Of a stretch of DNA of 64,000 bases, positions 813 to 54,250 are shown in pieces. How positions within the stretch are numbered: the stretch's first letter is position 1; every line of letters begins with the position of its first letter. This DNA is from a virus (Duplodnaviria > Heunggongvirae > Uroviricota > Caudoviricetes). The DNA lies in IMG/VR virus record IMGVR_UViG_2675903313_000009; one strand, 5' to 3'. The position numbers and the translations under genes were made by a program. The notes beneath the pieces were generated by a model. It saw only the letters and a program-made list of their open reading frames with translations, did no database searches and was not told the DNA's origin.

Positions 813-825
813 AAACAAGTTGTTT
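813..825. promoter_or_regulatory. O1 dyad motif AAACAA-N-TTGTTT upstream of parA (candidate operator)
   Basis: aaacaagttgttt about 35 bp upstream of the parA start; same dyad recurs at least 6 more times in the window. Confidence 0.45.
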
Positions 826-860
826 CAGACGATAATTATATACGCAAAGGGAACTCTCCA

Positions 861-1529
861 ATGACCAAGATCTTTGTGGTTGGCGGCACAAAGGGCGGGC
901 CTGGCAAATCCACCGTTGCCCAGCAAATTGCCGTTTGCCTGAAAGTCAAAAAGAAGAAGAAGGTTTATATTACCGATATAGATATTCAGCGCACGACAAC
1001 GAGCTGGTGTGAAGACCGTCGACAGAACGAAGACCTTGAGCTGATTCCTTTTGCATACGTTCAGGATGACATCATTAAGCACCTAAAATCGCTTCAGGGT
1101 AGAGCTGAGTTTGTAGTGGTAGATGCTGGTGGCTTCGACTCCGAAATTCAGCGACAAGCGATGCTGATGGCTGACGTTATCATTATCCCGCTGCGTCCTA
1201 AGCGTCGTGATTTGAAATCTTTACGTGACATCGATCCTATTATCGACAATGTTCGCAATGTAAACGATAAAGTGAAGGTCCGCGCGGTCATGAACCAGTG
1301 CCCGGCTTTGCCATCACAAGTGTCTCGCATTCTGGCGGCTAAAGAGATTGTTGAGACGTTTGGCATCGAGTCTGCGCCAGTCAATCTATATAACCGCAAC
1401 GTCTATGATGATGCGGAAGAGTCTGGTCGTTCTATCTTTGAAATGACCGGTAGCGAGCGCGACAAAAAGGCGGAAGCCGAGTTTGAAGAATTTGTAGATT
1501 ATCTGTTGAGTCTGGAGGAAGAAGAATAA
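861..1529 (+). CDS. parA: ParA/MinD-like partition ATPase
   Basis: deviant Walker A GGTKGGPGKST near N-terminus; about 220 aa; followed by small RHH-type partner with overlapping stop/start. Confidence 0.8.
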   Translation: MTKIFVVGGTKGGPGKSTVAQQIAVCLKVKKKKKVYITDIDIQRTTTSWCEDRRQNEDLELIPFAYVQDDIIKHLKSLQGRAEFVVVDAGGFDSEIQRQAMLMADVIIIPLRPKRRDLKSLRDIDPIIDNVRNVNDKVKVRAVMNQCPALPSQVSRILAAKEIVETFGIESAPVNLYNRNVYDDAEESGRSIFEMTGSERDKKAEAEFEEFVDYLLSLEEEE

Positions 1530-1888
1530 TGTCCATGAAAATGGGTGACCTAGCAAAGCGCAAAGAGCCTGATGCACCGGCTAAGAACACAACTCCTTTG
1601 CGCCAACCAGTCAGACCACAGGGACGCCCGACTCGTGGCAAAGAGAAAATTAAAAGCCGCACAATGTCACTGGAGGACGAATACTTCGAACTGCTGGAGA
1701 TGATGAAGTTCATCCCTCGCTTCGAGAAGTTCACTCGTTCTGACGTGATTCGTGCTGCTATTTTCCATCTTGCGGAGAAGACACCGCAGGAAATCGAGGA
1801 CATCGTGAAACTTAACGAGGCGATCACAGCTGCCGATGTCACGATGCGTACCGATGAAATCAAACGCGAGTTGATGAAGAAAGGTTAA
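1529..1888 (+). CDS. ribbon-helix-helix (ParG/CopG-like) DNA-binding partner of ParA
   Basis: 119 aa, basic disordered N-terminus then predicted beta-alpha-alpha segment (KSRTMSL...EDEYFELLEMMK...RSDVIRAAIFHL); start overlaps parA stop. Confidence 0.5.
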   Translation: MSMKMGDLAKRKEPDAPAKNTTPLRQPVRPQGRPTRGKEKIKSRTMSLEDEYFELLEMMKFIPRFEKFTRSDVIRAAIFHLAEKTPQEIEDIVKLNEAITAADVTMRTDEIKRELMKKG

Positions 1889-1893
1889 TTTTA

Positions 1894-2652
1894 TTGAGGT
1901 GCTGCTTGGCACCTCTTTCTATAGGTTCCCTAATGCTCTACAAATATATTGGAAGTGAAGATTCGCAAAAAGTGTTACGTAACCTCAAACGGTTTGTAGA
2001 GGACGGCACTATCTCTGCTAGCGCACCTTCTTCATTCAACGACCCATCAGAGTTCAAAGTTTCGATAACGATGGGAGGTACAGAAGTGGAGCACCGGAAA
2101 CACTTTGAAGACAATGGATGTAAGGATTTTTCCTTTGAAGACTGGGATGCTGTAGCTCCTGAAGCTGCAAAATCGTTGGCTGTGGATTTGCGGAAAGAAT
2201 CATTAGGGGCTTTTGGTGTGGTGTGCTTGTCACCAAACGAAGATAACATCTTGATGTGGTCACATTACTCAGTGTCGCATAAAGGTTTCTGCATAGGCTT
2301 TGATGATGATTTTGTTACCTCTATTGAGGGGTATCACAGCTTTGATAATGTGAAATATATACCTTCTGTTCCCGTGTTCGATGAAGTTACAGATGAGTTT
2401 AAGGTACTTTTTGATAAGCTCTTTTTCTACAAGCACGAATGCTGGAAATATGAGGAAGAACAAAGGGTTATTACTAAAAAAATAGGCGCTCAGGCATTTG
2501 ATAAGAAATATATTAGAGAGATCATTCTTGGACATAACGTTTCTCCTGAAGTAGAAGAATATGCCCGGACACAGCTAGACACGAGCATCGAGGTTTACAA
2601 AATGAGTACACCTGATGATGGTTATCTTCTTGTCAAAGAAAAGCTGAAGTAG
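1894..2652 (+). CDS. hypothetical accessory protein (motifs reminiscent of DUF2971-type proteins; unverified); alternative ATG start at 1933
   Basis: ORF with lower GC than replication genes; motifs NDPSEF and LMWSHYSVSHKGFCIGF; TTG start at 1894 or ATG at 1933. Confidence 0.5.
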   Translation: MRCCLAPLSIGSLMLYKYIGSEDSQKVLRNLKRFVEDGTISASAPSSFNDPSEFKVSITMGGTEVEHRKHFEDNGCKDFSFEDWDAVAPEAAKSLAVDLRKESLGAFGVVCLSPNEDNILMWSHYSVSHKGFCIGFDDDFVTSIEGYHSFDNVKYIPSVPVFDEVTDEFKVLFDKLFFYKHECWKYEEEQRVITKKIGAQAFDKKYIREIILGHNVSPEVEEYARTQLDTSIEVYKMSTPDDGYLLVKEKLK

Positions 2653-2718
2653 CTCCAGACTTTCCTCAAATGATTATGTTGGGCGCTTTTCTTATTGAAC
2701 TGGTTAGTGAGGCTAATA

Positions 2719-3891
2719 ATGGATTTGTTCTCAACCAAAATAGCAAAAAACAAGCTGCACGAATCTTTTAAACAGATTTATCAAGATAATACATATGCTC
2801 CAGTAAGAGAAGTGATACAGTCGTGGGGGCGTGGGTTACTGGAGCGTAGCGGTGAGCAGACTAAATTCGTTAAAGAGTTTCAGACAACCTTCAATTCCGC
2901 CTTATGGGAATTGTATCTGAACGAAATGTTTATTCGTCTCGATTATTCTGTCGACTACACAAAAGACAGTCCCGATTTCTGTGTTACTACACCGTCAGGC
3001 TACCAGTTTAACGTCGAAGCTGTGATATCAGATCGGCCACATAATCCACCTGCAGGTGTTCTTTTTAGCGAATCAAAATTCAAACATCAATCAACGCTAA
3101 AATTAATCGGAAAAATCAAAGACAAACATGATCTTTTTACAGGAGTTAATGGCAAAAAATTCCCGTACTCTACGATGTCTCATGTAGTTAATAAGCCGTT
3201 TGTTCTGGCGCTTGCACCCTTTGACTCCGATTTATCATTGTCTCAAAATAACACAATCATCAATCGAGTGTTGTTTGGCATTGAGGAACCTACCACCAGA
3301 AATTTGGTGACTGGCAGCCAAACTAAAGTTACCTCAATCAAAAAGAATGAAGACGTTGAAATTCCATTAGGTATATTTACTAACGACTCATATAAAGAAA
3401 TAAGTGCGGTTATTTTCTCCACCACCGGCACTTTTGGAAAAGCCGTGGTTCAAAGCGGTATCGGTAGATATGTAAGGTCAACACGATATCGAGCCATTGA
3501 TGTGAATGATTTCATCGCCAATGAAGGGATGAAAAACGAGGGAAAGCACACACAAAGGATAGGACCTGATCATTTCATCACTACATATCGGCATTTTTTA
3601 AATAACGAAGTCACTGGTGCGGATATTGTAGTTTGTCATTCCACTGCTCATGAAGAGACGCACTTTGACGGCCTTCATATTTACTACAATCCTTTTGCGA
3701 CAGTGCCACTGGACAGAAATATTTTCTTCCCCCCAGAGATAACTCATAATTTTTACGATATGGAAAAAGAACAGTCTGTTCAGAATCATCCTGATGGAGC
3801 GCTGGTATCTAGACAGGTTTTTGAACCAACTAGAGCACATTTTAGGTATATCATGAAACATTGGTTTCCAGGCTTTCTAAAAGATGTTTAA
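2719..3891 (+). CDS. hypothetical accessory protein (ORF open from 2695)
   Basis: ATG at 2719 preceded by GAGG 7 nt upstream; AT-rich coding sequence; no recognisable catalytic motif. Confidence 0.5.
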   Translation: MDLFSTKIAKNKLHESFKQIYQDNTYAPVREVIQSWGRGLLERSGEQTKFVKEFQTTFNSALWELYLNEMFIRLDYSVDYTKDSPDFCVTTPSGYQFNVEAVISDRPHNPPAGVLFSESKFKHQSTLKLIGKIKDKHDLFTGVNGKKFPYSTMSHVVNKPFVLALAPFDSDLSLSQNNTIINRVLFGIEEPTTRNLVTGSQTKVTSIKKNEDVEIPLGIFTNDSYKEISAVIFSTTGTFGKAVVQSGIGRYVRSTRYRAIDVNDFIANEGMKNEGKHTQRIGPDHFITTYRHFLNNEVTGADIVVCHSTAHEETHFDGLHIYYNPFATVPLDRNIFFPPEITHNFYDMEKEQSVQNHPDGALVSRQVFEPTRAHFRYIMKHWFPGFLKDV

Positions 3892-3914
3892 GCATCCTGC
3901 TGGTTGAATTTGGA

Positions 3915-3978
3915 ACCTGCTTCTGTATATAAATACTAAGTTACTTATTATTATTTATACGGAAGCAGGTCTTTTTCT
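3915..3978 (+). terminator. long imperfect hairpin plus T-run; copy 1 of a conserved hairpin element
   Basis: arms acctgcttctgtatataaata / tatttatacggaagcaggt followed by ctttttct; a near-identical element occurs at 50318-50383. Confidence 0.5.
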
Positions 3979-4079
3979 ATGCCAACTTCCCAGACACATT
4001 CCCTTCCGTTTCCACTTCCAAAAACTGCCACCAGTCGCTATCATCCGCTCATTGCAATAAGTAAGTAACTACCTATCTG

Positions 4080-4829
4080 GTGAGCCACATGAGCCAAATC
4101 TTTTTTGATACCATTGACAACGACCAGTACGACTTCATGACAGAGTGGAATACCGCTGTTATGGACAAGTGGGTCGCTGAAAACATTGGTTTGTCGCGCT
4201 GCAAAGACGAGGCTGAACTCTTCGAGACGAAGTGGTTTGATTACCGCGATATGCATCCTCTCATGGCCACCTGTCTGTTTACGGAGGCGTACAAACGTCA
4301 GTACTCAAATATCATGCTGACGCACGGTCGCGAACACTTTGAAACAGCTCCGTTCACCACCGGGTTAAAACGCCTGCCTTATCAGGAGTTGTCGACTGCC
4401 AATAAAACGTCGCTATGGAAAGCACGCCAGTTTGCTGATCGCTATTGCTGTTCATACGACTACTTTATCTCCACGGTTCTTTCCGCAGCTGCACGGCGTC
4501 TGTGGGACAAGTTGCCGCGCCCACAGCATTTATGGCAGCCAGAACTGGTTGAGATATTCGAAGAGAAATTATCCAGACGCGCAACAACCCGTCTGGATGA
4601 CTCTCTGGTTAGCTTTAAGCATATGGGAGACATGCAGTTCAACCCGATTCAGGAAAGCTATTTTGAGTGGATTCTGGAGCGTTTGCGCATCATCCCCCGC
4701 AGCAAGCGCATACGCGCAATTTTCTCTGCTATCTGGCTAATGGAAATCGTTCCAGAGCGCCTTATTTCCGCCCACTTTCCAGAAGAACTGGAAGAAGCAC
4801 GGCGGTTTATTGATCCCCTATCTAATTAA
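4080..4829 (+). CDS. hypothetical protein
   Basis: 249-codon ORF on coding strand; alternative ATG at 4089; no recognisable motif. Confidence 0.5.
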   Translation: MSHMSQIFFDTIDNDQYDFMTEWNTAVMDKWVAENIGLSRCKDEAELFETKWFDYRDMHPLMATCLFTEAYKRQYSNIMLTHGREHFETAPFTTGLKRLPYQELSTANKTSLWKARQFADRYCCSYDYFISTVLSAAARRLWDKLPRPQHLWQPELVEIFEEKLSRRATTRLDDSLVSFKHMGDMQFNPIQESYFEWILERLRIIPRSKRIRAIFSAIWLMEIVPERLISAHFPEELEEARRFIDPLSN

Positions 4830-4841
4830 CTAATACTAGAA

Positions 4842-4854
4842 AACAATTTGTTTA
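4842..4854. promoter_or_regulatory. O1 dyad motif (candidate operator) upstream of helicase gene
   Basis: agaaaacaatttgtttaaaa about 20 bp upstream of the ATG at 4873. Confidence 0.45.
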
Positions 4855-4872
4855 AAAAACAAAGGAAAGCAC

Positions 4873-6213: not shown

Positions 6214-6294
6214 AAAATAAGCGTGGAGAACACCTCCACGCTTGATTCATTGGTGAAACAACTTTTCTTTTGCCAAACCACAAAAGAAAAACAC

Positions 6295-13608: not shown

Positions 13609-13683
13609 GATGGTGTAGCTCAGCGGTAGAGCAGTTGGCTGTTAACCAACTGGTCGGTGGTTCGAATCCACCCACCATCGCCA
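13609..13683 (+). tRNA. tRNA-Asn (anticodon GUU)
   Basis: cloverleaf read by eye: acceptor GATGGTG/CACCATC, anticodon loop CTGTTAA, T-loop TTCGAAT, encoded CCA. Confidence 0.85.
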
Positions 13684-13688
13684 ATTTA

Positions 13689-13775
13689 GGGGAGTTAGTC
13701 CGTAGAGGTAGCGGTGTAGACTGTAAATCTACTGTCATGGCGACTCGGGTGGTTCGACTCCATCACTCCCCACCA
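13689..13775 (+). tRNA. tRNA-Tyr (anticodon GUA), class II with long variable arm
   Basis: acceptor GGGGAGT/ACTCCCC, anticodon stem GTAGA/TCTAC with loop CTGTAAA, T-loop TTCGACT, encoded CCA; D-arm not fully resolved. Confidence 0.7.
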
Positions 13776-13779
13776 AATT

Positions 13780-13855
13780 GCCGGTTTAGCTCAGTTGGTA
13801 GAGCAGTCGCTTTGTAAGCGAATGGCCAGCGGTTCAAGTCCGTTAACCGGCACCA
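13780..13855 (+). tRNA. tRNA-Thr (anticodon UGU)
   Basis: acceptor GCCGGTT/AACCGGC, D-arm GCTC-AGTTGGTA-GAGC, anticodon loop TTTGTAA, T-loop TTCAAGT, encoded CCA. Confidence 0.8.
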
Positions 13856-13863
13856 ACACAACA

Positions 13864-13939
13864 GGTAAGAGCATTGGGCGAATCGGCGATACTGACCCAC
13901 AAGGCCGTAAATCGATAGAGTCAGACCAGTGCTCTTACC
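13864..13939 (+). other. inverted-repeat hairpin between tRNA-Thr and tRNA-Ser (14-bp stem)
   Basis: ggtaagagcattgg pairs with ccagtgctcttacc (one G-U), loop about 48 nt. Confidence 0.5.
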
Positions 13940-14045
13940 GTTGTGATGAATGCACAGGCTGATGTGCCGCAACTACAGTAGTGCGCGCTTTGCGGGGCTT
14001 GCTACAACCCTGTGTCGGAGTTCAGTACCGACCATCACAATAGCT

Positions 14046-14132
14046 GGAGAGTAGGGAGCATGGTGCTCAAGCGGTCTTGAAAACCGTTCCATTGTGCAAA
14101 CGATGATGGTTCGATTCCATTACTCTCCGCCA
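14046..14132 (+). tRNA. tRNA-Ser (anticodon UGA), class II
   Basis: acceptor GGAGAGT/ACTCTCC, anticodon stem GCGGT/ACCGT with loop CTTGAAA, long variable arm, T-loop TTCGATT, encoded CCA. Confidence 0.7.
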
Positions 14133-16119: not shown

Positions 16120-16217
16120 ACTGAAAATGAGTTACTTTTACTCTTGATCCTATAAGAATCTATGCCTAATATACTGTTTACTTATACAGTGAATCGGCGT
16201 AACTCGGTGATTGTCAT

Positions 16218-17321
16218 ATGAAAAATAGCTTTGACAGAGCACGCGCTGCGGAGAACACCTCAAAAGAGGCGATTGAGTATCTCGAAAGAGCATCTCAAAT
16301 GCAGGCCGTTATGATCTCGCAGGTCAGCAATGACATGAGATTCTCGGACGCATTCATGTTATTCACTCGCTTATCTCTGCTGATAACAAGACGTCGGCCA
16401 GAGATCGCTGTTCATTGTATTTTGATACATGTTTTGCCGCACATTGCCGATGTAAAAGTAAGTGACATTAATAGGTTCATGGTGAACCAACTGGTCAACC
16501 CACTAATACTGGATGGCAAAATTGTTATGGGCCGCCGCGTTTTCTCTCTGATGAAGCAGTTCCTTAGCTGGTGCGCCTTCCAGGGGATGATAGACGTGTC
16601 ACCGTTAAACGATATGTCACTAAACAAAGTTGCCGGTGGCGCAAAGCCCACACCTCGCGAGCGGAAGCTGACCGACGCAGAGGTATGGGTGTTCTGGAAT
16701 ATATGGGACTACTTCAATGTGTGCGCTGGTACAAAATGGGCGGCCAGGCTGTGTCTTGTATCCGCAAGACGACCTGACGAAGTACTGCGGGCTAAAAAAA
16801 GTGAGTTCAATCTTAAGCGTGGGGTTTGGAATCAAGGCAAGAGGAACAAATCTGCCCGTGAGCATTCGCTGCCTTTAAGCACATTAATGCGCACATGTAT
16901 TGAAGAGTTGTTCGAATACGGTAAAGGCAGCCAGTGGCTCGTGCCTTCGAATAAAAAAATCGGGAAAGACCTTCCTATGTCTAAAGTGGCAATAGCCCAG
17001 GCATTACGTCGTATCCTGGAACGACCAGAACTGATGGAGCTTGAGCCATTTACACCCCGAGACTTGCGCCGTACTGCGCGTAGTTACTTCCCAGCATTAG
17101 GCATAAGCCAGGAGGTATCACGCAAAATCATGAACCACAGTCTTGAGGGGATAGATCGAGTCTACGACCGGCACGATTATATGGACGAGATGCGAGACGC
17201 CTTAGAAAGTTTCTCGACGTACATCGCATCAATCGTAGAGCAACCGGATTTAGACGAAATTGACCACAAATTCAAGGGAGATCGTCTATCAACAGAGCTT
17301 ATTCGTGTAAATTTTTCATAG
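16218..17321 (+). CDS. tyrosine recombinase (integrase/resolvase family)
   Basis: catalytic-domain motifs LVSARRPDE, TPRDLRRTARSYF and HSLEGIDRVYDRHDY (R...H-x-x-R...Y). Confidence 0.8.
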   Translation: MKNSFDRARAAENTSKEAIEYLERASQMQAVMISQVSNDMRFSDAFMLFTRLSLLITRRRPEIAVHCILIHVLPHIADVKVSDINRFMVNQLVNPLILDGKIVMGRRVFSLMKQFLSWCAFQGMIDVSPLNDMSLNKVAGGAKPTPRERKLTDAEVWVFWNIWDYFNVCAGTKWAARLCLVSARRPDEVLRAKKSEFNLKRGVWNQGKRNKSAREHSLPLSTLMRTCIEELFEYGKGSQWLVPSNKKIGKDLPMSKVAIAQALRRILERPELMELEPFTPRDLRRTARSYFPALGISQEVSRKIMNHSLEGIDRVYDRHDYMDEMRDALESFSTYIASIVEQPDLDEIDHKFKGDRLSTELIRVNFS

Positions 17322-17702
17322 AGACTTTATGGCCTCAACAACCTTTTGTGATGCGCCTTTCTCTTTACCGAATCGCTCGTTATATGCAGCAAGAACCTGT
17401 TTTTCGTCCTCGTTAAGAGGAGCGGTGCCTTCTTTGTATAAAAATGCTGCGAGTTCAGGTTGGCGTTCTTCCAGCACCATCATCATAAGACGACTTGGCT
17501 CAATACCCAGCGCCAGCGCCAACGGACGAACCTTATCGATAGGCAAAGGAATTTTGCCACTTTTAATTAAAGAAAGGTTGTTGGCATTTTTATAACCAAT
17601 AAGTCTGGCTATTTGGGCCTGACTCATAGGTGAGGATTCAATCAGCCCTGCGATAAAAGCAGCATAGCGACTTTCTATAAATTCAATCTTGTTGTCAGAC
17701 AT
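17316..17702 (-). CDS. XRE-family helix-turn-helix regulator (repressor-like)
   Basis: HTH SQAQIARLIGYKNANNLSLIKSGK; divergent from downstream genes; palindromic operator in its promoter. Confidence 0.6.
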   Translation of the reverse strand: MSDNKIEFIESRYAAFIAGLIESSPMSQAQIARLIGYKNANNLSLIKSGKIPLPIDKVRPLALALGIEPSRLMMMVLEERQPELAAFLYKEGTAPLNEDEKQVLAAYNERFGKEKGASQKVVEAIKSL

Positions 17703-17733
17703 TGTTACAACCTTTGCGCGTTCAATTCTCTCT

Positions 17734-17747
17734 GGTAAGTGCTTACC
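17734..17747. promoter_or_regulatory. O2 palindromic operator GGTAAGTGCTTACC in the repressor promoter
   Basis: 6-bp inverted arms with 2-bp centre, about 32 bp upstream of the repressor start; near-identical copy upstream of nrdA. Confidence 0.5.
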
Positions 17748-17952
17748 GATATTACATCAAAGGTTAGGGTTGTAAAGCTATTATCATTTTTTCGATAGGC
17801 ACTTAAAAGACCGGTTAAAGGCCATTGCACGGAGAAAAATTAGCCCAAAACAGGTAAGAAAATTAACTTGCATATGATATGAATGTATTCAGTATTGATA
17901 TAAATTTTAGTAGTATTCCTTACCATAGTATAAGTTAGAATGGATTGATTGA

Positions 17953-18165: not shown

Positions 18166-18263
18166 CCCCTCTTCTCCCTGCGCGAATGGCTTAGTTCCCT
18201 GTTCGCGCAGTGCTACATTAAACACACTAGTAAATAATTTGTTTTCATAACAAAGGATTAGCC

Positions 18264-21909: not shown

Positions 21910-24900
21910 CTTCTCACTTGGGGAGTCGGCTCTAAAAGCAGAAAACGCGGTGAAGATTGCCAGAGAAGCTGGCTACACCGCTGTAATTTCAGCAGATAGC
22001 ATGAATATTGCGAGCGTTATTCCACTACAACGTGCCGCTGGTGACGACATGGCGGTTATTTGTGGTGTGAAACTAAACATTGTTGATGATCCCACATACG
22101 AGCACCGGGCTAAACTTGCTAAAGAATCTATGAGATGTATGGAATCATTAGAGCGGGGACGTAACTACTCGTTTACCGCTCTAATTAAAAATGAGCAAGG
22201 ATATCGCGACATCTGCGAACTAATGACGGTGGCCAACACACGAGAACAGTTCTACTTTGTACCGCGTCTCTCGCTCGAAAAGTTGGTTTCTACATATGCC
22301 AAAGGCAACATCATCCTGCTCACTTCCGACATCGGTAGCGTGTTCCAACGCAACGATTTTGCAAAAATCATAAGCTCACTGATTACAGCGGGCGGGAAAG
22401 ACAACTTCTATAGTGTGGTTTATCCGCACCCTACCCCATTCTACGACCAGATTAACGTCCGAGCGATGAAAGTCGCCAGCGCACTGAAAATAGAGCCAGT
22501 AGCGTTCTATCCCGCTTATTACGAATCGATCGACGATGCAGACATTAAAGACATTGCGCACATGGTTACGAACAACATAAAAATCGACCAGCCGCATCGT
22601 CTGCGTATCCCCCACCAGCGAGATAACGCCATCAATGGTCGTCGCCATCTCCTTGAGGCGCTTAAAGCCTTCTCCGTTCGCATGGATGTGCCGGTAACAG
22701 CTGCAATGGCCTCAACAACGCAGGACTCCATTATCGATGCCTGCACATGGCGCTGGCATGAATTGCCACCAGCACTGCCCAAGATGGCAGACGACGAACC
22801 TGCAACGCTGATGAAACTGGCTGTTGCAGGGCTGCGTAAACGTCTTACCACAAAAGAGTTTGGATACACACCACCTGCTTCTGAGAACAGGGTTTATGTT
22901 GAGCGGCTAAAGTACGAAATGGACACGCTGACTCGCCTGGGATTCTGTGGTTACTTCCTGATGGTACGCGATCTGATGAATCACAGCCGTGAAACTGGCA
23001 TTCCTGTCGGGCCTGGTCGTGGTTCCTCTGCCGGTTCTCTGGTGGCGTGGTGCATAGGCATAACCAACGTCGACCCAATCCGTCACGGTCTTCTGTTTGA
23101 GCGTTTCATCAACCCTGAGCGTCTCGACTTGCCGGATGCGGACTTGGACTTCAGCCAGGCACGTCGCCATGAGGTGATCGAGTATCTGAATGAACGCTAC
23201 GGCGAAGATTACGTTGCAGGCATTCCGAACTTCACCTACCTGGGCGCAGCCTCTGCACTACGTGACACCGCTCGTATTTATGGTGTGGAGTCCGCAGATA
23301 TGGCGGTATCAAAAGAACTGAAGAACGTCGAGGATGATAGCCTTCCATTGGAAGAGCTGCGCGAACAACTGGCAAGTCTCGACAAATACGCAACAAAATA
23401 TCCTGATGCATTCAATGCAGCCTGCAAGTTACAAAGCCTTATGCGTGGCTTTGGTAGACATGCGGCAGGGATGATCGTAGCAGGTGTTCCTCTAACAGAA
23501 CGTACACCGGTTGAGCGCCGTGGTGACGCGCGTTGTATCGCATTTGACAAGCGTTACTGCGAGGCTATGGGCCTAATTAAGCTGGACGTACTTGGTCTGG
23601 CAACTCTCGATTTGCTCGATAGTGCAAAACGCTACATAAAAGAGAACACAGGTGAAGATATCAATCTTGATGCCATTTCTCTTGAAGATCGCAAGGTGCT
23701 GGATGGTTTTGCTGCTGGGTACACTCAAGGTGTTTTCCAGCTTGAATCAGGCCCAATGCGCAAGCTGCTTAAAGATTTAGGTGGTGGAATTGAGCCAATG
23801 AGCTTTAAAACGGTTGTTGCTACGACTGCGCTCTTCCGGCCGGGGCCAATTCAGTCAGGCATGTTGGATGACTATGTTTCTGTAGCCAAAGGCTTTATGA
23901 CGCCGGAATCATTACACCCCGTTCTTGATGAACTTACCGCAGAAACAAATGGCGTGATTCTCTATCAGGAACAGACGATGAACGCGACTCGATTGCTTGC
24001 TGGCTTCACAATGGCTGAAGCTGACGGCGTTCGTAAAGCGATCGGTAAAAAAGACATGGAAAAAATGAAGAGCATGGGCGAGAAGTTCATCGTTCAGGCT
24101 CAAGCTGGCTGGATAGACGTTGAGCTGGAAGATGGCACTACACAGCGCATTCACCGTGCGGAACATTTTAAATGCGAAGACGGAACTCTGAAAACTGTCG
24201 AAGAGGCACTTGAGTACGGCGCAAAACTACCTATAAACGCAGTACGCGTTACAGCGTCACATCCAGGGCTATCAGAGATGAAAGCGAAGGAGATCTGGAC
24301 CGCATTCGAAAAGAATGGTGCCTACCAGTTCAACAAATCACACTCTGTTGCTTACTCCTTAATCAGTTATCAATCTATGTGGTTGAAAACTCATTATCCC
24401 GCGGAGTTCTTCGCTGCTGCTCTCACTATTCTTGGCGAAGATAAACACCAGGGGCTGGTTAAAGATGCGCTGACCTATGGTATTCGCGTATTGCCACCAG
24501 ACGTTAACGTGTCATCTAACCGAATCGAGATCCGCACGCTTGAAGATGGCAGCCAGGTGCTGTATGCGCCCTTCTCTGCTGTGAAAGGGTGTTCTGAGAA
24601 TGGCTGCCAAGCCATCATGAGAGCGCGAGAAAAAGTTGGCGGCAAATTCGAGTCACTGGCGCAATTCGAAGAAGCTGTCGAGAAACGTGCCTGTAATAGT
24701 CGAGTGCGCGAATCGCTGCAAAAAGTAGGGGCGTTTGCATCCATCGAGCCAGGCAGTCTGCCAGCAACTGATCCAGAGCGCCTACGCGACCAGGCTGAAT
24801 TGATGGGAAACCTTGTCATAGACGCAGTTAAAGCCTCACGTCCGTTTGAGATGAACCCCAAACGTTCGGCTGAAATTAACGTACTCATGACGCGGATGGC

Positions 24901-30622: not shown

Positions 30623-30641
30623 CGCAATTATCTTATTAAGA

Positions 30642-30654
30642 AAACAATTTGTTT
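30642..30654. promoter_or_regulatory. O1 dyad motif (candidate operator)
   Basis: aagaaaacaatttgtttaaaa about 17 bp upstream of the ATG at 30671. Confidence 0.45.
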
Positions 30655-30670
30655 AAAAGGATAAGAAAAC

Positions 30671-42498: not shown

Positions 42499-42561
42499 CA
42501 TATGGTGGGGGATATCCCCACCTTCTCTTTGATTTGTAAGCCTTGTTTAAACACATAAGAT

Positions 42562-42573
42562 AACAACTTGTTT
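42562..42573. promoter_or_regulatory. O1 dyad motif (candidate operator) upstream of nrdB
   Basis: gataacaacttgtttaaacg about 30 bp upstream of the ATG at 42605. Confidence 0.45.
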
Positions 42574-42604
42574 AAACGCACCAAAAAAGAAAAAGGAAAA
42601 ACAC

Positions 42605-47562: not shown

Positions 47563-47982
47563 ATGTTTAGTGAACTGTTGCTTGAAGATGAACTGGATCG
47601 GAAAACAACAGAGGCTTTGATTCGTGTAGCGGACGAACATTCCCGGTCGCTTATGAGCGATCGAGAGGCTCGTCTGGCTATTCGTGCCATATTCGAAACT
47701 GCGCAGGGGCTTGTTGGTACACAAGTGGGTGAAGCCATTAACATCGCCATGTCTCAGTTCAGTGAAGGCAGTAAAAAGCCTCTGTTTCCTATGCATTTGA
47801 TGCTGGCTGGTGGCACGGTGCTTTATATCTCTGTTTGTCTGGATAGCAACCAAATCAATATTCTCAACACTGTGTCAGGTAAGTGGAAAGATCCGATTGT
47901 CTGTGAAACCAGTGAAGAAACTTTGAAAAAAGCGGCTCAATTTGTACGTAGCGCACTACTTAAGGGCGCTAAGAAGTTGTAA
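47563..47982 (+). CDS. hypothetical protein
   Basis: 139-codon ORF with RBS-like aggataaaaaATG. Confidence 0.5.
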   Translation: MFSELLLEDELDRKTTEALIRVADEHSRSLMSDREARLAIRAIFETAQGLVGTQVGEAINIAMSQFSEGSKKPLFPMHLMLAGGTVLYISVCLDSNQINILNTVSGKWKDPIVCETSEETLKKAAQFVRSALLKGAKKL

Positions 47983-47991
47983 GGAGTTCTG

Positions 47992-48549: not shown

Positions 48550-48555
48550 AACAAA

Positions 48556-48592
48556 AGCCTGCTTTAAAGAGAGTTTGAAGCAGGCTTTCTTT
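48556..48592 (+). terminator. rho-independent terminator
   Basis: stem gcctgctt/aagcaggc followed by tttcttttaaa. Confidence 0.65.
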
Positions 48593-48709
48593 TAAAGAAC
48601 AGTCGCCTTTCAATCATTTCCTGCCTGTATTTAATACTTTTCCGCCTGATAGGTTTAGTCAAAATGCAGCCATCGAAACGCAAATGTAACCAAACAGAAG
48701 GAGACTTAC

Positions 48710-49519
48710 ATGAGTTCGGTTGAAAATGTAATGACAAATGATGATCTGGACGAGCTGACAGCCATGTTGCAATCACTTGATGAACCAGTAAAAAAAGCTG
48801 CACAGGTTGAAAATACTGATGATATTGACGATCTGCTGCTCGGCCTAGATGCTGGCGTAGCCATGAGTTCTGATGATGTTGCCGAAGAACTGTTCAATGA
48901 AGAAAAAGCAGGTGATTTCAGCTCTACTTTAAATGAGTTGGAGTTAGCGCATGAGCCTATAAACGTAATTAACGCTGAAAGTGTTGAAGCTGCCGAAAAC
49001 GAGCCAGAACAATTGGGATTTATTGAGGTTGAAGAGTGTGTTGAGGTTAATGATGAATTAAAAGTTCAACAGTCAAATGATAGCAATACAAATAAAAAAG
49101 CTCGTACTGCAAGAGGTCCTCGTTTTACTTTAAGTGATAAAGATGATTCGTTTTTCAATAAAGCGGGCTTAGAAAAAGATATTTTCTTAGACGCTTACGA
49201 TAACGCGCCTGTCAAAGCAAAGGATAAGATATTAAACCTTCTTAATTGGTTTAGCGGAGGTCCAGATATTAGTGTTTACACGGTAATTTCCATGAGACAC
49301 CTTCTCACAGAAAAGAAGGCTACAAGTAATAGTATTAAGATTGCTTTAATGAGCAATCCAGAAAAACCGTATCCGCTTAACACTGCGTCAACTCAGGCTG
49401 GGCAAATGATGGCTGTATTTCCAGCGACAGGAATTGCCGTTAGAGACGGTGGAAATCTAACATTGAACGAAGAATCACCGATCGTTAAGAAGTTTGTCGC
49501 GGAGTACACTATTGGATGA
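48710..49519 (+). CDS. hypothetical protein with highly acidic N-terminal half
   Basis: 269 aa; first 110 residues dominated by D/E; immediately upstream of the Dam-like methyltransferase. Confidence 0.5.
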   Translation: MSSVENVMTNDDLDELTAMLQSLDEPVKKAAQVENTDDIDDLLLGLDAGVAMSSDDVAEELFNEEKAGDFSSTLNELELAHEPINVINAESVEAAENEPEQLGFIEVEECVEVNDELKVQQSNDSNTNKKARTARGPRFTLSDKDDSFFNKAGLEKDIFLDAYDNAPVKAKDKILNLLNWFSGGPDISVYTVISMRHLLTEKKATSNSIKIALMSNPEKPYPLNTASTQAGQMMAVFPATGIAVRDGGNLTLNEESPIVKKFVAEYTIG

Positions 49520-49702
49520 CGTTCCCCTACTTAAAATAAAGCCCATAGAGAGCTTTATAGTACTGGGTAAGCCAATCACATACCCAGCACCACAAAAACG
49601 CGCCAGAGAGCTTCTCGTTTGCATTTCTGGCGCGTTTTATTTGATTGCCAGACATAAAATCAAATGCAAAAATAGGTATATACTTACCTATCGAGAAAGA
49701 AG

Positions 49703-50296
49703 ATGATTGCAGCCGAAAAAATCAAACAGCGAAAGCGCGACAACTCTCTTCGTGACCTCTGGAGAACACCTGACTGGCTGTTTTCTGCCATTCAACGTTA
49801 TCTTGGAGTGACATTTGATGTTGACGTTGCCTGCAACAAGGACAATGCAAAGCTGCCTAATTTCATAGGCGTTGAGCGTGATGCTTTGAAATCTGAATGG
49901 GGACAGCCAGGTACAATTGCCTTCCTCAATCCACCCTACTCCAAAATCTACCCCTGGATTGATGCGGCTATACGTGAGCAGGCTCGCGGAGTTACAACAG
50001 TGATGCTAATTCCTCAATCCCTAGATACAAAGTGGTATGAGCGTGCAACAGAGTGTGCGAATGAGACGATTATTCTGTCTGGTGGCCGCGTAGCGTTTGT
50101 CGAACCTGACGTAAATCTGGGTCAGGTAGAAGTAAACATCAACCCAGGTGGCAGTATGCTCGTTGTTTTTCGAGGATTCTGTCAGGACGCTGGGCACTCT
50201 ATAAGCAAGATCCCTTTGGACGTCATGAAAAGTCTGGGAGGGTATGATCATGCGAATGTGATCAGGAAAAAAAGACCATCAAAGAAGGCTGCTTAG
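49703..50296 (+). CDS. phage-type DNA N6-adenine methyltransferase (Dam-like)
   Basis: catalytic motif FLNPPYS; about 197 aa. Confidence 0.75.
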   Translation: MIAAEKIKQRKRDNSLRDLWRTPDWLFSAIQRYLGVTFDVDVACNKDNAKLPNFIGVERDALKSEWGQPGTIAFLNPPYSKIYPWIDAAIREQARGVTTVMLIPQSLDTKWYERATECANETIILSGGRVAFVEPDVNLGQVEVNINPGGSMLVVFRGFCQDAGHSISKIPLDVMKSLGGYDHANVIRKKRPSKKAA

Positions 50297-50317
50297 TTTG
50301 TTCTGGCGTCTGTAATT

Positions 50318-50383
50318 AGCCTGCTTCTGTATATATAAATAACCACATATTAATTATTAATATACGGAAGCAGGCTGTTTTGT
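50318..50383 (+). terminator. long imperfect hairpin plus T-run; copy 2 of the conserved hairpin element
   Basis: arms agcctgcttctgtatat / atatacggaagcaggct followed by gttttgt; arms nearly identical to the 3915 element. Confidence 0.5.
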
Positions 50384-50481
50384 ATCAGAGACTCCAGACC
50401 TGAACATCACTACAGAATCCACTAGAACCCCTTCCCAGACGCTTTAAAATCGATTTTATGAACCACTTTAAGGAAACCAAC

Positions 50482-50712
50482 ATGTCATACCCGACTAATG
50501 TCGTTGCGCTCGTAGAGAGCGATTTTCTGGCCCAGGCTCGTGAAATGATGAAAGATCGTGAGCAGGCTTTCAACTTGTACGAATGGGCAATTAAGTGCTT
50601 GCATCTTGGCGAGCATCGCGAACTTGTTGAACAGCTTTTAGGTGAGTTGATCAATGAGGTGTTTGCCTTGAATGTTCAACTACATGGTAGAGAAAATAAT
50701 CAATCACAATGA
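50482..50712 (+). CDS. hypothetical small protein
   Basis: 76 aa; start context aaggaaaccaacATG; ORF open from 50458. Confidence 0.45.
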   Translation: MSYPTNVVALVESDFLAQAREMMKDREQAFNLYEWAIKCLHLGEHRELVEQLLGELINEVFALNVQLHGRENNQSQ

Positions 50713-50719
50713 TAGATAA

Positions 50720-51290
50720 GTACAAACTATTCATAAAGTGAATTGTAAGTGCTAAGATCTGATAGTTTCCAGTCGTAGACTGGAGACTCGACCTGATGGG
50801 TGGGGGTAAGCGTCACTGGCGTCAGGTTTAAAAAAGCTCACTACCAGCGTAGAACTGGTGCCGTTTAGGTGTCGGGGAAGGGGGAACCAAAGTGAGCAGA
50901 GACAAGGGTCACTTTATGATTGTCGAGTCTGGGGTGTTTCGAGAGGTTGAATCCAGTACTCCCCTTCATAAAGTGTGGGAAGATCTCGGTTCTGGGGTGC
51001 TGTCATCCATAACTTCCCAAGTCTAAGCTGGCAGTAGACTTAGACCATAACTTTTCAGGTTATGAAACGACCAGGTTGGTGAGAGATTTTTATACTCACC
51101 TCCCTGGGAGAGTATTACCTGAAAAGACAACCTCTCACTTCGTTCGAGGTGAACTTCACTCACTTCGTTCGTTCAGTTCAGGTTTATAAAAACCTGTTCT
51201 GGGAAGTAATTTGTTTATTTTAATAATTATTAACACGCACGCGTGTGCGCACGCGCGAGGAAAAATCGGCGCGGCGCTTGATTCAGGAGT
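50720..51290 (+). other. 570-bp structured noncoding region (candidate ncRNA or origin/packaging element)
   Basis: no credible ORF; G-runs, repeated tctggggtg, several local hairpins, tandem tcacttcgttcg repeat, 25-nt perfect alternating purine-pyrimidine tract at 51233-51257. Confidence 0.4.
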
Positions 51291-51294
51291 TTAT

Positions 51295-51885
51295 ATGACG
51301 ACGAAGACACCAGCCCGATCGCAAGCAAAAACTCGCAAAAAAGACAAAAACAAAAATTCTCCCCGCACCAATCCCACAACGCCTGTCGTAGAGTTCAATC
51401 CCCAGCTTAAAACCGTGAAAATCTTTAGTGATGGCTCTTGCCTTAAAAATCCGGGTGGCCCGGGCGGTTACGGTATCGTTCTCCAGTATCGTGGTGAGGA
51501 ACGCGAGTTCTCAGATGGTTTTCATAGCACCACCAATAACCGCATGGAGATGATGGGGGCACTTATCGGGCTGGAGCGTTTGAAATATCCATGCAACGTT
51601 ATTTTGCACTCTGATAGCCAGTATCTGAAAAACGGCATGACACAGTGGATGAAATGGTGGAAACGCAATGGATGGATGACTTCTGACAAAAAACCGGTAA
51701 AGAATGTTGATCTGTGGAAGCGTCTGGATGAGGCCGCAAGTCGACATAATGTTCGCTGGAAGTGGGTTAAAGGTCACGCCGGGCATCGTGAAAATGAAAT
51801 ATGTGATCGACTCGCGAAGATCGCAGCTTTTTCAGCAGCAGATATGCCTCACAAGAAAGATATTGGTTTTGTTTATAACAAATAG
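51295..51885 (+). CDS. rnhA: ribonuclease HI with basic N-terminal extension
   Basis: [38 protein letters not shown] parallel E. coli RNase HI; ORF open from 51211. Confidence 0.9.
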
Positions 51886-52033
51886 TAAGTAAGTGTTTAC
51901 CTATCATTTTAAATCATGTATCTTATCGGCGTCAGGATGACAATGTGTCGGTAAGACACAGTTCCAGGATGGAACGAGAAAGGCGGCTGGCAATCGCCAG
52001 CCGCAACTCTTTCTGACACTGGATGGAGTCCAC

Positions 52034-52528
52034 ATGGCACGTCAAACCTATTTCACTTCTGTAACTAAACGTCCTCGTTCTTTACGTCAAATTTTGGCCG
52101 AATTATTTAGCGGTCGTGTTATGTCACGTCTTGATGAACTAGAGACTACCGTTCGGTTGCTGAATGAACGTTTAGATAATCAAGCGTCAGTTGTTGCGAA
52201 CGTGGGGGCGATTGTTGCCTCTGGTTCTTCACGCGAAGCGAAAAGTACACGGCCTTTAGTGAAGGAGAAAAACAACAAGGACAGTTCGAATGGAAAATTT
52301 TCAAAGAAAGAGGCTGAAACCAATGGCCTACGTTCTCATTATAGTTTCACTGGCGACGGTAGCCGTTCCAGCCGGCCAGAGCCTTTTGATGCCGGGTTCA
52401 TCCATCACCACACCTCCGTCGACGACAATTACCACCACTCCAGTAGAGCGTCCTGTCACTCTGGATGGGATGACGGTGGATGCGATACCTCAAGTTCATC
52501 CGGTTACTCAGGATCATGCTGTGACTAA
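52034..52528 (+). CDS. hypothetical protein (3' part overlaps 52323-52541 in another frame; extent uncertain)
   Basis: N-terminal 95 residues look protein-like; C-terminal part low-complexity S/G/H/C-rich. Confidence 0.3.
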   Translation: MARQTYFTSVTKRPRSLRQILAELFSGRVMSRLDELETTVRLLNERLDNQASVVANVGAIVASGSSREAKSTRPLVKEKNNKDSSNGKFSKKEAETNGLRSHYSFTGDGSRSSRPEPFDAGFIHHHTSVDDNYHHSSRASCHSGWDDGGCDTSSSSGYSGSCCD

Positions 52529-52541
52529 GGCGGTTGTATGA
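52323..52541 (+). CDS. small membrane/secreted protein with Thr/Pro-rich linker
   Basis: ATG with agagg 9 nt upstream; hydrophobic N-terminus MAYVLIIVSLATVAVPA; ORF open from 52290. Confidence 0.35.
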   Translation: MAYVLIIVSLATVAVPAGQSLLMPGSSITTPPSTTITTTPVERPVTLDGMTVDAIPQVHPVTQDHAVTKAVV

Positions 52542-52726
52542 ACTGGTTTTCAAATCACTTTGGAAAAATTTGGCTGGCAATTCTTGCCCTCATGGCCGCC
52601 GGTTGGGTATCGAACATTATAAAACTTGTTTGCTCTGGCGATCTCCAGTTTCAGGCTGGCATGACCTTGGCTCGTGTAGTTGGGATTTTTGTTTTTCCAG
52701 TCGGTTCGGTACTTGGTTATTTCTGA
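52538..52726 (+). CDS. small two-TM membrane protein
   Basis: 62 aa, two hydrophobic helices; start overlaps the previous stop (ATGA). Confidence 0.4.
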   Translation: MNWFSNHFGKIWLAILALMAAGWVSNIIKLVCSGDLQFQAGMTLARVVGIFVFPVGSVLGYF

Positions 52727-52782
52727 CGGCTGTTAGTGCATATGCATTGACCATCTTTGCGTAAGCAATTTATGTAATTAGA

Positions 52783-52795
52783 AAACAACTTGTTT
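52783..52795. promoter_or_regulatory. O1 dyad motif (candidate operator) upstream of TerB-like gene
   Basis: agaaaacaacttgttttgac about 25 bp upstream of the ATG at 52820. Confidence 0.45.
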
Positions 52796-52819
52796 TGACA
52801 AATAATAAAAGGAAAACAC

Positions 52820-53245
52820 ATGTTAGGTTTCTTCAAAAAGAAAACTCGTAAAGCTGTTATCGAAGTCAAAAAAATGGAGAACCGTGATGCGGTTGAGGCC
52901 ACCGTGTGGGGCGCGTACATGATCTCCTATGCCGACGGCACATGTGACGCAAAAGAAATTGCCATTCTTGAGAAGACAATTGCAGCTCTGCCTGCGTTTT
53001 CTCCGTTTGCTGGTGAAATTGCCCAAATGAGCGCCAATATCCGTGCTCGTTACGAAGCGTCCCCTCGTTCTGCTAATGCACAGGCTATTCGTGAGCTGTC
53101 TGATATTGCGGGTACTCCAGAGGCGGTCGATGTTCTGTGTCTGTGCCTTGATATTGCCGATCAGGACGGCATTGGTGAACAAGAAGAGCAGGCACTGAAA
53201 AAGATCGCCCAGGCGCTTCAGTTGTCACTGGATGCTTATCTCTAA
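52820..53245 (+). CDS. TerB-like domain protein
   Basis: two ADG...E repeats (ISYADGTCDAKEIAILEK and DIADQDGIGEQEEQALKKIAQAL) typical of TerB-type domains; 141 aa. Confidence 0.5.
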   Translation: MLGFFKKKTRKAVIEVKKMENRDAVEATVWGAYMISYADGTCDAKEIAILEKTIAALPAFSPFAGEIAQMSANIRARYEASPRSANAQAIRELSDIAGTPEAVDVLCLCLDIADQDGIGEQEEQALKKIAQALQLSLDAYL

Positions 53246-53403
53246 TGCTTGAGAGATTCCGGCTTGTGATCGTCATTGCTCTTCTGGTGATGGCGGTGTT
53301 GGTGGATTTTACGGGAAAGATGATGTCTGTCATTTCTGATGGCGTCCTCATTGGTTTGGCGATCTACTTCGCTTATCCGTTAGTTCGTAAAGCAAAGTGT
53401 TAA
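53245..53403 (+). CDS. small membrane protein
   Basis: 52 aa hydrophobic ORF; ATG overlaps the TerB-like stop (TAATG); followed by a terminator. Confidence 0.4.
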   Translation: MLERFRLVIVIALLVMAVLVDFTGKMMSVISDGVLIGLAIYFAYPLVRKAKC

Positions 53404-53405
53404 TG

Positions 53406-53435
53406 ACAAGGGCCATTTGGCCCTTGTGTTTCGTT
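53406..53435 (+). terminator. rho-independent terminator
   Basis: stem acaagggcc/ggcccttgt followed by gtttcgtt. Confidence 0.65.
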
Positions 53436-53511
53436 GACCGAAATAGAGAGTTTGCACCTTTACGTTTAGCTTGCTCCCCTTTTATGCCACATCACAATAA
53501 AGCCAATAAGA

Positions 53512-53524
53512 AAACAACTTGTTT
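53512..53524. promoter_or_regulatory. O1 dyad motif (candidate operator)
   Basis: aagaaaacaacttgtttaag about 18 bp upstream of the ATG at 53543. Confidence 0.45.
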
Positions 53525-53542
53525 AAGCATTAAGGAAAACAC

Positions 53543-54109
53543 ATGTGCGAGAAATGCAAAGCAATAGCTGATGAACAAAACGCCCTATTCGAAGAAATGG
53601 ATGCTAATGAACTTGTCAAAATGTTAGGCATTGTTCGGGGAACAGAAGACGTTTCTATATTTGAGAGACTGTTTACAGTACTTAATTTTAATTCCACCTT
53701 TGAAGAGCCAACTCAGGTTGTAGCTTTGGCACACCATTTCGGTGTTCATTATCTTGCCGAAAAAGAGCGCGCTAATAAGTTGCAGGCGACTTTGGATATG
53801 GTGAGCGAGACTCAAGGAACCCATGACGGTAACAATAGTGAGACGATTATTGCCAGCAAAGATCGTGAAATTGCCGGACTTAAGTCTTCTCTAACGATGT
53901 TGATGTCTGCAATCAATCTTATGTCTTCTAAAGCGGGATATAAAATGCCATCACTAAACAGTGACGATCCAATGGCCGTTCGCCAGCTTTTGGGAGCAAT
54001 GGCCGACCAGCTTGATGATACGAAAAGTCGGCTTGAAGACATGATGCGGGAGCTTACGCATCGCCACGACTTGAATAAGCAACCGCACAAAACGCAATAC
54101 GCACTCTAA
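53543..54109 (+). CDS. hypothetical protein
   Basis: 188 aa; start context aaggaaaacacATG. Confidence 0.5.
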   Translation: MCEKCKAIADEQNALFEEMDANELVKMLGIVRGTEDVSIFERLFTVLNFNSTFEEPTQVVALAHHFGVHYLAEKERANKLQATLDMVSETQGTHDGNNSETIIASKDREIAGLKSSLTMLMSAINLMSSKAGYKMPSLNSDDPMAVRQLLGAMADQLDDTKSRLEDMMRELTHRHDLNKQPHKTQYAL

Positions 54110-54250
54110 TACTGCACCAGTCGACAGGGGGCGAAAGCCCCCATTTTTACGCCTTAAATCTGCTGTAACGCCTATGAATGCAGCTTTTATGCCTTTTCAA
54201 GTTTGCGATAATTACACCAATCAGAAAACAAATTATTTAATGGTGTAATT

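Follow-up and report, generated by a model that had tools for sequence, protein, structure and literature searches.

A dispersed palindrome, O1, as the putative operator set of a stereotyped promoter module in SSU5/pHCM2-type phage-plasmids

In P1, a single repressor, C1, acts at many operators scattered over the lytic, replication and accessory promoters of a plasmid-prophage; these operators are asymmetric 17-mers with the consensus ATTGCTCTAATAAATTT. In the KorB/IncC system of RK2 and the omega/delta system of pSM19035, a DNA-binding partition protein acts through one repeated site to repress many promoters, that of its own operon among them; for RK2 KorB this site is a 13-base-pair (bp) palindrome. 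The phage-plasmid N15 also carries scattered sites for its Sop partition protein, where a SopB/ParB-type protein with four sites reportedly facilitates late expression. A set of comparable layout is described here in a 64,000-nucleotide (nt) stretch of the IMG/VR virus record IMGVR_UViG_2675903313_000009 (the window), in which a 19-base near-palindrome, O1 (AAGAAAACAANTTGTTTAA), stands in front of the parA operon, replication genes and accessory cassettes, as an original prediction made from the sequence had proposed. That observation is real, and the set is much larger than first listed.

The likeness to P1 C1, drawn already in that prediction, holds for the layout but fails for symmetry and sequence: O1 has a palindromic 6+1+6 core, its sequence is unrelated to that of the C1 operator, and it keeps a fixed register to an extended -10 promoter element. 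As in the KorB and omega systems, the motif stands before a partition operon, in which the gene next to parA appears to encode a small centromere-binding protein. However, omega binds heptad arrays and KorB is a helix-turn-helix (HTH) ParB protein, while O1 is found as single copies or as pairs 49 bp apart, stands before phage early and late genes, and has a binder that is putative. Centromeres of the ParG/omega type usually form an array of repeats upstream of the par operon, where here a single O1 copy lies. For N15, the title of Ravin, Rech and Lane (2008), as cited in PMC11652158, refers to dispersed centromere sites that influence phage gene expression. Unlike the N15 sites, O1 is present in about 15-25 copies at predicted transcription starts, where its effect would be repression.

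The window is assigned by sequence identity to the SSU5/pHCM2 type of phage-plasmid because of its matches to known elements. Its first 20 kilobases (kb) are up to 99.7% identical to Escherichia coli plasmids, about 97% identical to the phage-plasmids Cyrano (pLF82, OV696614) and CMS-2020a, and about 82% identical to Salmonella phage SSU5. According to the annotation of Cyrano, the window extends from the parA region to a MinD-like gene across genes for replication, recombination and nucleotide metabolism, with nearly all genes on the + strand. Phage-plasmids of the SSU5 type, among them pHCM2 of Salmonella Typhi and pMT1 of Yersinia pestis, are widespread in Escherichia, Klebsiella, Salmonella, Enterobacter and Yersinia, and resistance genes are carried by some members. 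In the literature searched, which did not include one possibly relevant 2026 bioRxiv preprint, no description of lytic-gene control in SSU5-type phage-plasmids or of the O1 motif was found, and a search combining SSU5 with repressor and operator returned no relevant paper.

When the window was searched for AAGAAAACAANTTGTTTAA with up to three mismatches, nine matches were found against 0.17 expected, and none of 100 shuffled windows contained nine. A weight matrix built on 104 family sites returned the identical nine loci, with scores of about 21-34. The sole other score of at least 8 is the opposite-strand reading of the site at 18228 (11.8), so that the score distribution shows a gap; shuffled windows held on average 0.25 matches scoring at least 10. 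All nine copies lie outside a greedy set of open reading frames (ORFs) that covers 86.9% of the window (P ~1e-8), and all nine sit directly 5' of + strand genes. The seven copies originally listed are among them as full 19-mers on the + strand, their former coordinates marking the inner AAACAA core; two more, at 18228-18248 and 57132-57150, had been missed. The predicted 6-bp inverted repeat with a 1-bp centre describes the core correctly but not the flanks, which break the symmetry with AG to the left and AA to the right. Seven canonical copies share the orientation of the gene that each precedes, the decayed copy at 18228 scores higher on the opposite strand, and the copy at 57132 is inverted. 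A fixed distance to the start codon had also been claimed; instead, the interval from the end of O1 to the ATG varies from 10 to 33 nt (20-43 nt from dyad centre to start codon), and what stays fixed is the distance to the -10 hexamer.

That register emerges from the wider family. Whole-genome scans find about 15-25 O1 copies each in Cyrano and SSU5, with a dense cluster before small genes just past the right end of the window; the set of motifs proposed at seven genes is real, but O1 belongs to a longer promoter module, and the set is much larger and lies mostly outside the window. An exact-pattern scan of IMG/VR gave 120 loci, of which all multi-copy loci are SSU5-like and the unrelated contigs are single chance matches. 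In a pattern scan of genome contigs for host chromosomal O1, the matches listed are chance matches in AT-rich genomes. The family set comprises 374 instances, reduced to 134 non-redundant copies, 68 of which have a clear -10 hexamer. Relative to the motif start, position -10 is a T in 115 of the 134; the hexamer spans -15 to -10, ending 9 nt before the motif, and begins at -15 in 50 and at -16 in 13 of the 68 promoters (fixed register in 63/68). It reads GATAAT in 35 of the 68 and is preceded by TG, at -18/-17, in 46. Other conserved features are a T-rich/GCC element from -37 to -25, 'AACACCAAC' between hexamer and motif, and GGA(G) at +20 to +23, followed by the ATG. The conservation of these features outside the motif is not inflated by the selection of sites, as that of the motif itself is. 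In 13 of the 68 promoters an inverted second copy is found upstream, always at an offset of exactly 49 bp; because the mean matrix score also peaks at -49, many further distal copies are suggested to exist in decayed form. O1 is kept at orthologous promoters in Escherichia, Salmonella, Klebsiella and Yersinia elements while the flanks diverge.

Within the window the complete canonical module occurs at 54184-54250 on the + strand. It consists of the upstream element CTTTTATGCCTTTT (54184-54197), the extended -10 element TGCGATAAT (54204-54212), TACACCAAT, O1 (54222-54240) and a 10-nt leader to the ATG at 54251 of a gene for a DUF4942 protein. This copy, formerly described as degenerate, is the only one in the window with a full canonical promoter: at 54204-54212, as in sigma-70 extended -10 promoters, TGn directly precedes a TATAAT-like hexamer with A2 and T6, and this is the only TGnGATAAT of the window. 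A mosaic junction was observed at the same place. Window 54066-54192 corresponds to Cyrano 81832-82877, with 96-98% identity on both sides; Cyrano has the extra genes CYRAN_88 and 89 there, and a decayed O1 before its DUF4942 gene. Because this junction ends at the promoter module, repeated modules may double as recombination points for cassette exchange.

The other copies are all on the + strand save the last; among the genes that they precede, Pfam confirms those for the ParA/MipZ ATPase, the DnaB-like helicase, the CobT-like protein, DUF7238, NrdB and the TerB-like protein. The copy AAGAAAACAAGTTGTTTCA at 809-827, identical in SSU5, precedes parA (ParA/MipZ ATPase; ATG 861) and is kept at the parA promoter in three remnants outside SSU5-like plasmids (L181, L182, L178). 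It has -10-like hexamers on both sides, TATATC upstream and GATAAT downstream (831-836), and the position of the promoter is uncertain here. The copy at 4837-4855 precedes a DnaB-like helicase gene (ATG 4873) and has orthologous counterparts in SSU5, in family locus L010 and in Klebsiella STEFF_14, where the flanks diverge. At 18228-18248 a decayed copy (TAGTAAATAATTTGTTTTCAT) stands before a CobT-like gene (ATG 18264), a position that carries a canonical O1 in SSU5 (42725), pHCM2, pMT1 and Klebsiella. A perfect copy at 30638-30656, before a DUF7238 gene (ATG 30671), lies directly 3' of a terminator hairpin (GGCGTCCAGTTGGACGCC followed by a T run). Another terminator hairpin comes before the copy at 42557-42575 in the nrdA-nrdB spacer (nrdB ATG 42605), which belongs to a 'AAGATAAC' subclass found also at nrdB of SSU5 (70215) and in L008; with the preceding T, this copy forms a -10-like hexamer, TAAGAT (42556-42561). 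Copies at 52779-52797 and 53508-53526 precede a TerB-like gene (ATG 52820) and an ORF of 188 amino acids (ATG 53543), respectively; the latter copy is perfect and has a -10-like CACAAT in the canonical register (53493-53498). Finally, the inverted copy at 57132-57150 (- strand; element to 57171) occupies the distal position of a module for the gene at 57221. It directly follows a hairpin (57115-57131) and lies 12 nt upstream of a + strand extended -10 element, TGTGAAAAT (57163-57171). Relatives have a second, direct copy 49 bp downstream of the equivalent of 57132, a proximal partner that has been replaced in the window and in Cyrano.

Two further arrangements were seen elsewhere in the family. 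Just before the small terminase gene, two O1 copies stand in tandem at a distance of 25 bp and are followed by a GC-rich hairpin with a T run (Cyrano 53-96, SSU5 52-95, pMT1 82987-83030); the late operon may join O1 control to a terminator that must be read through. On the minus strand, a close inverted or direct pair occurs at SSU5 ~90650-90790, Cyrano ~94560-94640 and three more loci (L105, L065, L007). It is followed by a conserved stretch, ATAACGCAACGGGAGCG.TTCTGAGC, where SSU5 has no annotated gene; this stretch could be a small RNA or a mis-annotated gene.

The pattern of variation in O1 bears on whether the motif is read as DNA or as RNA. Symmetric positions agree in 100-119 of 119 family sites and the central base is free. 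Departures from symmetry among the 119 copies are all one-sided (C-A ten times, A-A 21 times, and others), with no compensatory change. Folded as RNA, O1 gives a hairpin of -0.7 kcal/mol, and the leaders in the window are no more structured than shuffled sequence (z -0.3 to +1.3). A functional RNA hairpin or cruciform is not supported, given this marginal energy and recurrent one-sided changes (TTATTT, ATGTTT) that are never compensated. Nor was a known RNA family found: an Rfam search over the window returned tRNAs only and nothing at the O1 sites. In addition, some copies overlap or precede -10-like hexamers, namely TAAGAT in the nrdB subclass and GATAAT after the parA copy. Judged from these sequence features, the symmetry, the free centre, the inverted copies in fixed register and the -10 overlaps fit a protein on duplex DNA better than an RNA signal.

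Promoters as close to consensus as TGnGATAAT are expected to fire unaided. Their behaviour in the plasmid state was followed in RNA sequencing data for E. coli LF82 carrying Cyrano, which is 97% identical to the window (S1 table of PMC9928086; median background 9.8). The first genes behind O1 give values of 5.7-12.9, several of them behind near-consensus TGnGATAAT promoters: terS 7.1, the CobT-like gene 7.8, CYRAN_58 5.7, nrdB 12.9, the TerB-like gene 7.0, CYRAN_87 7.1, CYRAN_93 6.3, CYRAN_101 7.5, CYRAN_105 12.8, CYRAN_106 12.2, CYRAN_108 5.7 and CYRAN_110 6.7 (PMC9928086). Among the units behind O1, only the parA operon (49.8, 89 and 55), the helicase gene (21) and CYRAN_111 (25.5) stand above background. 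The genes with clear expression in the lysogen have no O1 and lie mostly on the other strand; they include toxin-antitoxin pairs, RepA, the HTH regulator, and the MinD-like and UmuD'-like genes (PMC9928086). The silence behind O1 promoters in the lysogen, near-consensus ones included, fits negative control at O1 but falls short of proof.

The explanation favoured here, with a probability of roughly 0.6, is that O1 is the operator set of one repressor, placed in a stereotyped sigma-70 promoter module, and that it silences replication and accessory genes in the plasmid state. The original prediction of a dimeric regulator's operator set agrees with how the motif behaves: it is palindromic, over-represented, promoter-proximal and conserved at orthologous promoters, and its downstream genes are silent in the lysogen. 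O1 would be a protein-binding DNA operator within extended -10 promoters of the host RNA polymerase. With the usual 7-nt spacing, the predicted transcription start falls 1-3 nt before O1, which would then form the first ~20 nt of a leader of ~30 nt; a protein bound there, over about +1 to +20, would prevent initiation or promoter escape. Where a second, inverted copy lies 49 bp upstream, over the -35 region, two bound dimers would bracket the -10 element. The arrangement recalls the lac O1 operator, likewise a palindrome that covers the start region (about +1 to +20) of a sigma-70 promoter and is joined by an auxiliary site upstream, but sequence and protein family are unrelated, and the auxiliary site here is 49 bp away, over the -35 region. 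A single regulator would in this manner hold about 15-25 transcription units off during plasmid life: the parA operon, helicase-primase, the CobT-like gene, nrdB, the accessory cassettes, the small early-gene cluster beyond the window and the terminase/late operon.

Two putative binders of O1 are ranked, a ParA partner protein first and an FljA-like protein second. The parA gene (861-1529, +), a MipZ/ParA ATPase by Pfam, is followed at 1529-1888 (+) by a gene for a 119-amino-acid partner that was read by eye as a ParG/omega-like ribbon-helix-helix protein. It shows a ribbon-helix-helix signature (..IKSRTMSLEDEYFELL...FTRSDVIRAAI..) after a basic, GRP-containing, AT-hook-like arm. Among homologues with as little as 48% identity, the segment RPQGRPTRGK..IKSRTMS.EDE...FTRSDVIRAAI is unchanged or almost so, and the homologues of 48-52% identity in which this putative DNA-binding segment is invariant include a Klebsiella lineage with an intact O1 set. 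On these sequence features and on its setting, the ParA partner is tentatively named the leading candidate. It is favoured because the expression of its operon matches the pattern expected of an autoregulated repressor, the parA operon being counted as the sole O1-preceded unit expressed in the Cyrano lysogen (with the helicase gene and CYRAN_111 also above background), and because O1 stays with parA in the decayed remnants elsewhere. The ParA partner would repress its own operon partially and other operons fully, in the manner of the global plasmid regulators KorB and omega. Distant homologues in unrelated plasmids were sought as a test of linkage with O1, and the search found only SSU5-like remnants and one 34%-identical pair with different upstream repeats.

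Several observations weigh against this account, some against the choice of binder and some against a repressor at O1 altogether. The ribbon-helix-helix fold of the ParA partner was not confirmed by profile or fold searches, and its AlphaFold2 (AF2) model has a predicted local distance difference test (pLDDT) score of 63. The Y. pestis plasmid pMT1 lacks the ParA partner gene yet has six intact O1 copies. Conversely, a relative in Moellerella has a ParA partner homologue (45% identity, with a different arm) but no O1 set, and upstream of its parA only the half-site-like sequences AAGAAAACAAT and TATTGTTT. The parA operon itself has a single O1 (809-827) rather than an array, and the other copies are dispersed. 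With regard to the promoter module, a convincing -10 element in register is found in the window only at 54222 and, less clearly, at 53508 and 18228, and no clear promoter accompanies those at 4837, 42557 and 52779. A conserved O1 also lies between convergent gene ends, beside a hairpin and far from promoters (SSU5 87623-87641, and loci L073 and L061), a copy that a pure promoter-operator model leaves unexplained. The canonical module would moreover transcribe the whole motif, which leaves room there for a role at the RNA level. Lastly, most prophage genes are silent in a lysogen anyway, and repression is here inferred from silence.

The strongest alternative, though an unlikely one, is that O1 acts in the mRNA leader, of which it would form nearly all, beside the Shine-Dalgarno sequence, where an FljA-like protein would bind it and shut off translation, perhaps also transcription, of the entire set. 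This protein is encoded outside the window, in Cyrano as CYRAN_114 (23780-24301) and in SSU5 as SSU5_121, and matches the Pfam family Flag1_repress (PF03614) at 1e-80. Its gene belongs to the core of SSU5-like elements, and the protein shares about 40% identity with chromosomal FljA and has a faint Hfq-like stretch. FljA-type proteins are described as preventing the translation of fliC mRNA (PMC2652032), and the Salmonella FljA/fliC case resembles O1 in that the same Pfam family is represented by a core gene and the motif lies in a leader beside the ribosome-binding site. The canonical module would indeed place O1 at about +1 to +20 and GGAG at +20 to +23, and the promoter-less copies before the helicase gene and nrdB lie just before ribosome-binding sites. 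However, the O1 leaders have neither a fliC-like sequence nor a stable RNA fold; O1 is palindromic DNA, and a palindrome is meaningless in a single RNA strand unless it folds, whereas the fold here is marginal and without covariation. The inverted copies at -49 lie upstream of the predicted start and would not be transcribed from the promoter that they flank. Across the four lineages compared, a recognisable FljA-like gene does go with the O1 set: the main E. coli/Salmonella/Klebsiella lineage, Klebsiella STEFF_14 and pMT1 all have one, and in Moellerella, which has no O1 set, tblastn finds no such gene and only a very distant homologue occupies the slot. Yet in STEFF_14 O1 is invariant although the identity of the FljA-like protein drops to 36% there and its N-terminal motif is altered, and the FljA-like gene is itself without an O1 and weakly expressed in the lysogen (18 versus 9.8). 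Two related observations concern the protein itself. By eye it seems to consist of two tandem Sm/Hfq-like segments (..VRVTLEDGQVF.., ..IRVYMADGREIEG..), and the Moellerella plasmid NZ_CP093251 encodes at 49018-49443, in the FljA-like slot, a 141-amino-acid protein that looks like a very distant homologue missed by tblastn.

It is improbable, by comparison, that O1 has no dedicated regulator and is an intrinsic part of a promoter and leader cassette, with an A-rich initial transcribed region and an unstructured A/U-rich leader that would enhance translation, which spread by duplication and recombination to positions before gene cassettes, its palindromy being incidental. Strong phage ribosome-binding leaders exist, that of T7 gene 10 being an example, and the right half of O1 with GGAG resembles them. 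The whole module of about 70 bp, beyond O1, is similar among copies, its leaders show no structure above that of shuffled sequence, and the mosaic breakpoint between window and Cyrano ends at it. Such a cassette would not account for the exact two-fold symmetry around a free centre, for inverted copies upstream of promoters or between convergent genes, or for the lysogen silence of near-consensus extended -10 promoters. O1 is also far better conserved than the rest of the module, a comparison that is inflated because the sites were selected by the motif.

An equally poor prospect is a binder other than the two ranked above, whether the HTH regulator beside the integrase, CYRAN_117 or a conserved host factor. 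The HTH gene (17316-17702, -) had been put forward in the original prediction; it has a weak HTH_19 match and the PHROG label 'transcriptional regulator', is nearly as widespread as the element and, like CYRAN_117, is expressed in the lysogen (96 and 114, respectively). As the binder of O1 it is nevertheless unlikely: it has a palindrome of its own, GGTAAGCACTTACC, it is missing from SSU5, which keeps the motif, and it is present in Moellerella, which lacks the O1 set. That palindrome (17734-17747) follows a near-consensus promoter, TTTACA-N17-TAATAT, in region 17703-17760, shows little or no variation among E. coli, pHCM2, pMT1 and Klebsiella, and by its sequence and position looks like a second, separate autoregulatory operator; no O1 was found between the HTH gene and its small divergent neighbour ORF. 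Further GGTAAG/CTTACC half-sites were seen at 17853 and 17919. CYRAN_117, encoded outside the window and read as ribbon-helix-helix from its sequence pattern, is unlikely in turn, since tblastn finds no match in the O1-rich STEFF_14 plasmid. A conserved host protein would suit the invariance of O1 across host genera but not the lack of an O1 set in the related Moellerella plasmid. The KdgR box has the same half-sites as O1 with a spacing 2 bp shorter; to our knowledge, no enterobacterial regulator has an O1-like site. Scans of ten small proteins against PHROGs and Pfam gave no further functional names. A T4 MotA box, a hin-type invertible promoter and a phage RNA polymerase promoter were considered and dropped because the start-codon spacing, the 49-bp arm distance and the sigma-70 -10 element do not fit.

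Other regulatory and structural features were noted in the window and in relatives. A LexA-box-like palindrome, TACTGTTTACTTATACAGT (16172-16190), lies 28 nt before the integrase start (16218), and another, CTGTATGTGTATACAG (61638-61653), precedes a gene for a UmuD'/HumD-like S24 peptidase (61672-62061). Expression of both genes increases strongly within macrophages in the LF82 data, and the boxes together with this increase suggest that they are under SOS control. The S24 gene was also considered as an SOS-cleavable CI-like repressor split by a frameshift, which is ruled out by its UmuD'/HumD-like sequence (GFPSPAADY...) and its own LexA box. The hexamer AAACAC directly precedes an ATG 12 times on the + strand of the window and never on the - strand (sites include 21878, 26071, 29539, 31146, 42599, 52814, 53537, 55992 and 57215), with a longer form, GGAAA(A/G)CACATG, occurring five times. 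This appears to be a shared translation-initiation context, by which the starts of the ORFs listed at 6223, 10697 and 35536 may need correction. A tRNA cluster at 13609-14132 comprises Asn-GTT, Tyr-GTA, Thr-TGT and Ser-TGA; its last member is a marginal tRNA-Sec in Rfam and Ser in ARAGORN. The distant SSU5-like plasmid of Moellerella wisconsensis (NZ_CP093251), in place of an O1 set, has eight copies of aatGCCTAGCTCCCATAgtatttaTATAAT, often as inverted pairs (positions include 562, 13428/13526, 26044, 51921 and 75597/75661), which may be that plasmid's own promoter-associated control element.

For the SSU5-type elements, the motif yields a concrete map of their main promoter class and a defined regulon of about 15-25 units per genome, together with a short list of directly testable candidate regulators. 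It is also a simple sequence handle for annotating transcription units. A bolder proposal, and a rather doubtful one, is that the ParA partner is both a centromere-binding protein and a master silencer acting through about 20 O1 sites or, alternatively, that an FljA-family protein has been recruited as a global reader of O1 at DNA or RNA 5' ends. In the first case, the ~20 sites would be at once the operators of nearly all early and late phage promoters and scattered partition sites, and the segregation and the lytic/plasmid decision of SSU5/pHCM2/pMT1-type elements would run through one protein. Should the partition protein be the regulator, these elements would provide a further case of partition fused with gene control, here in a phage.

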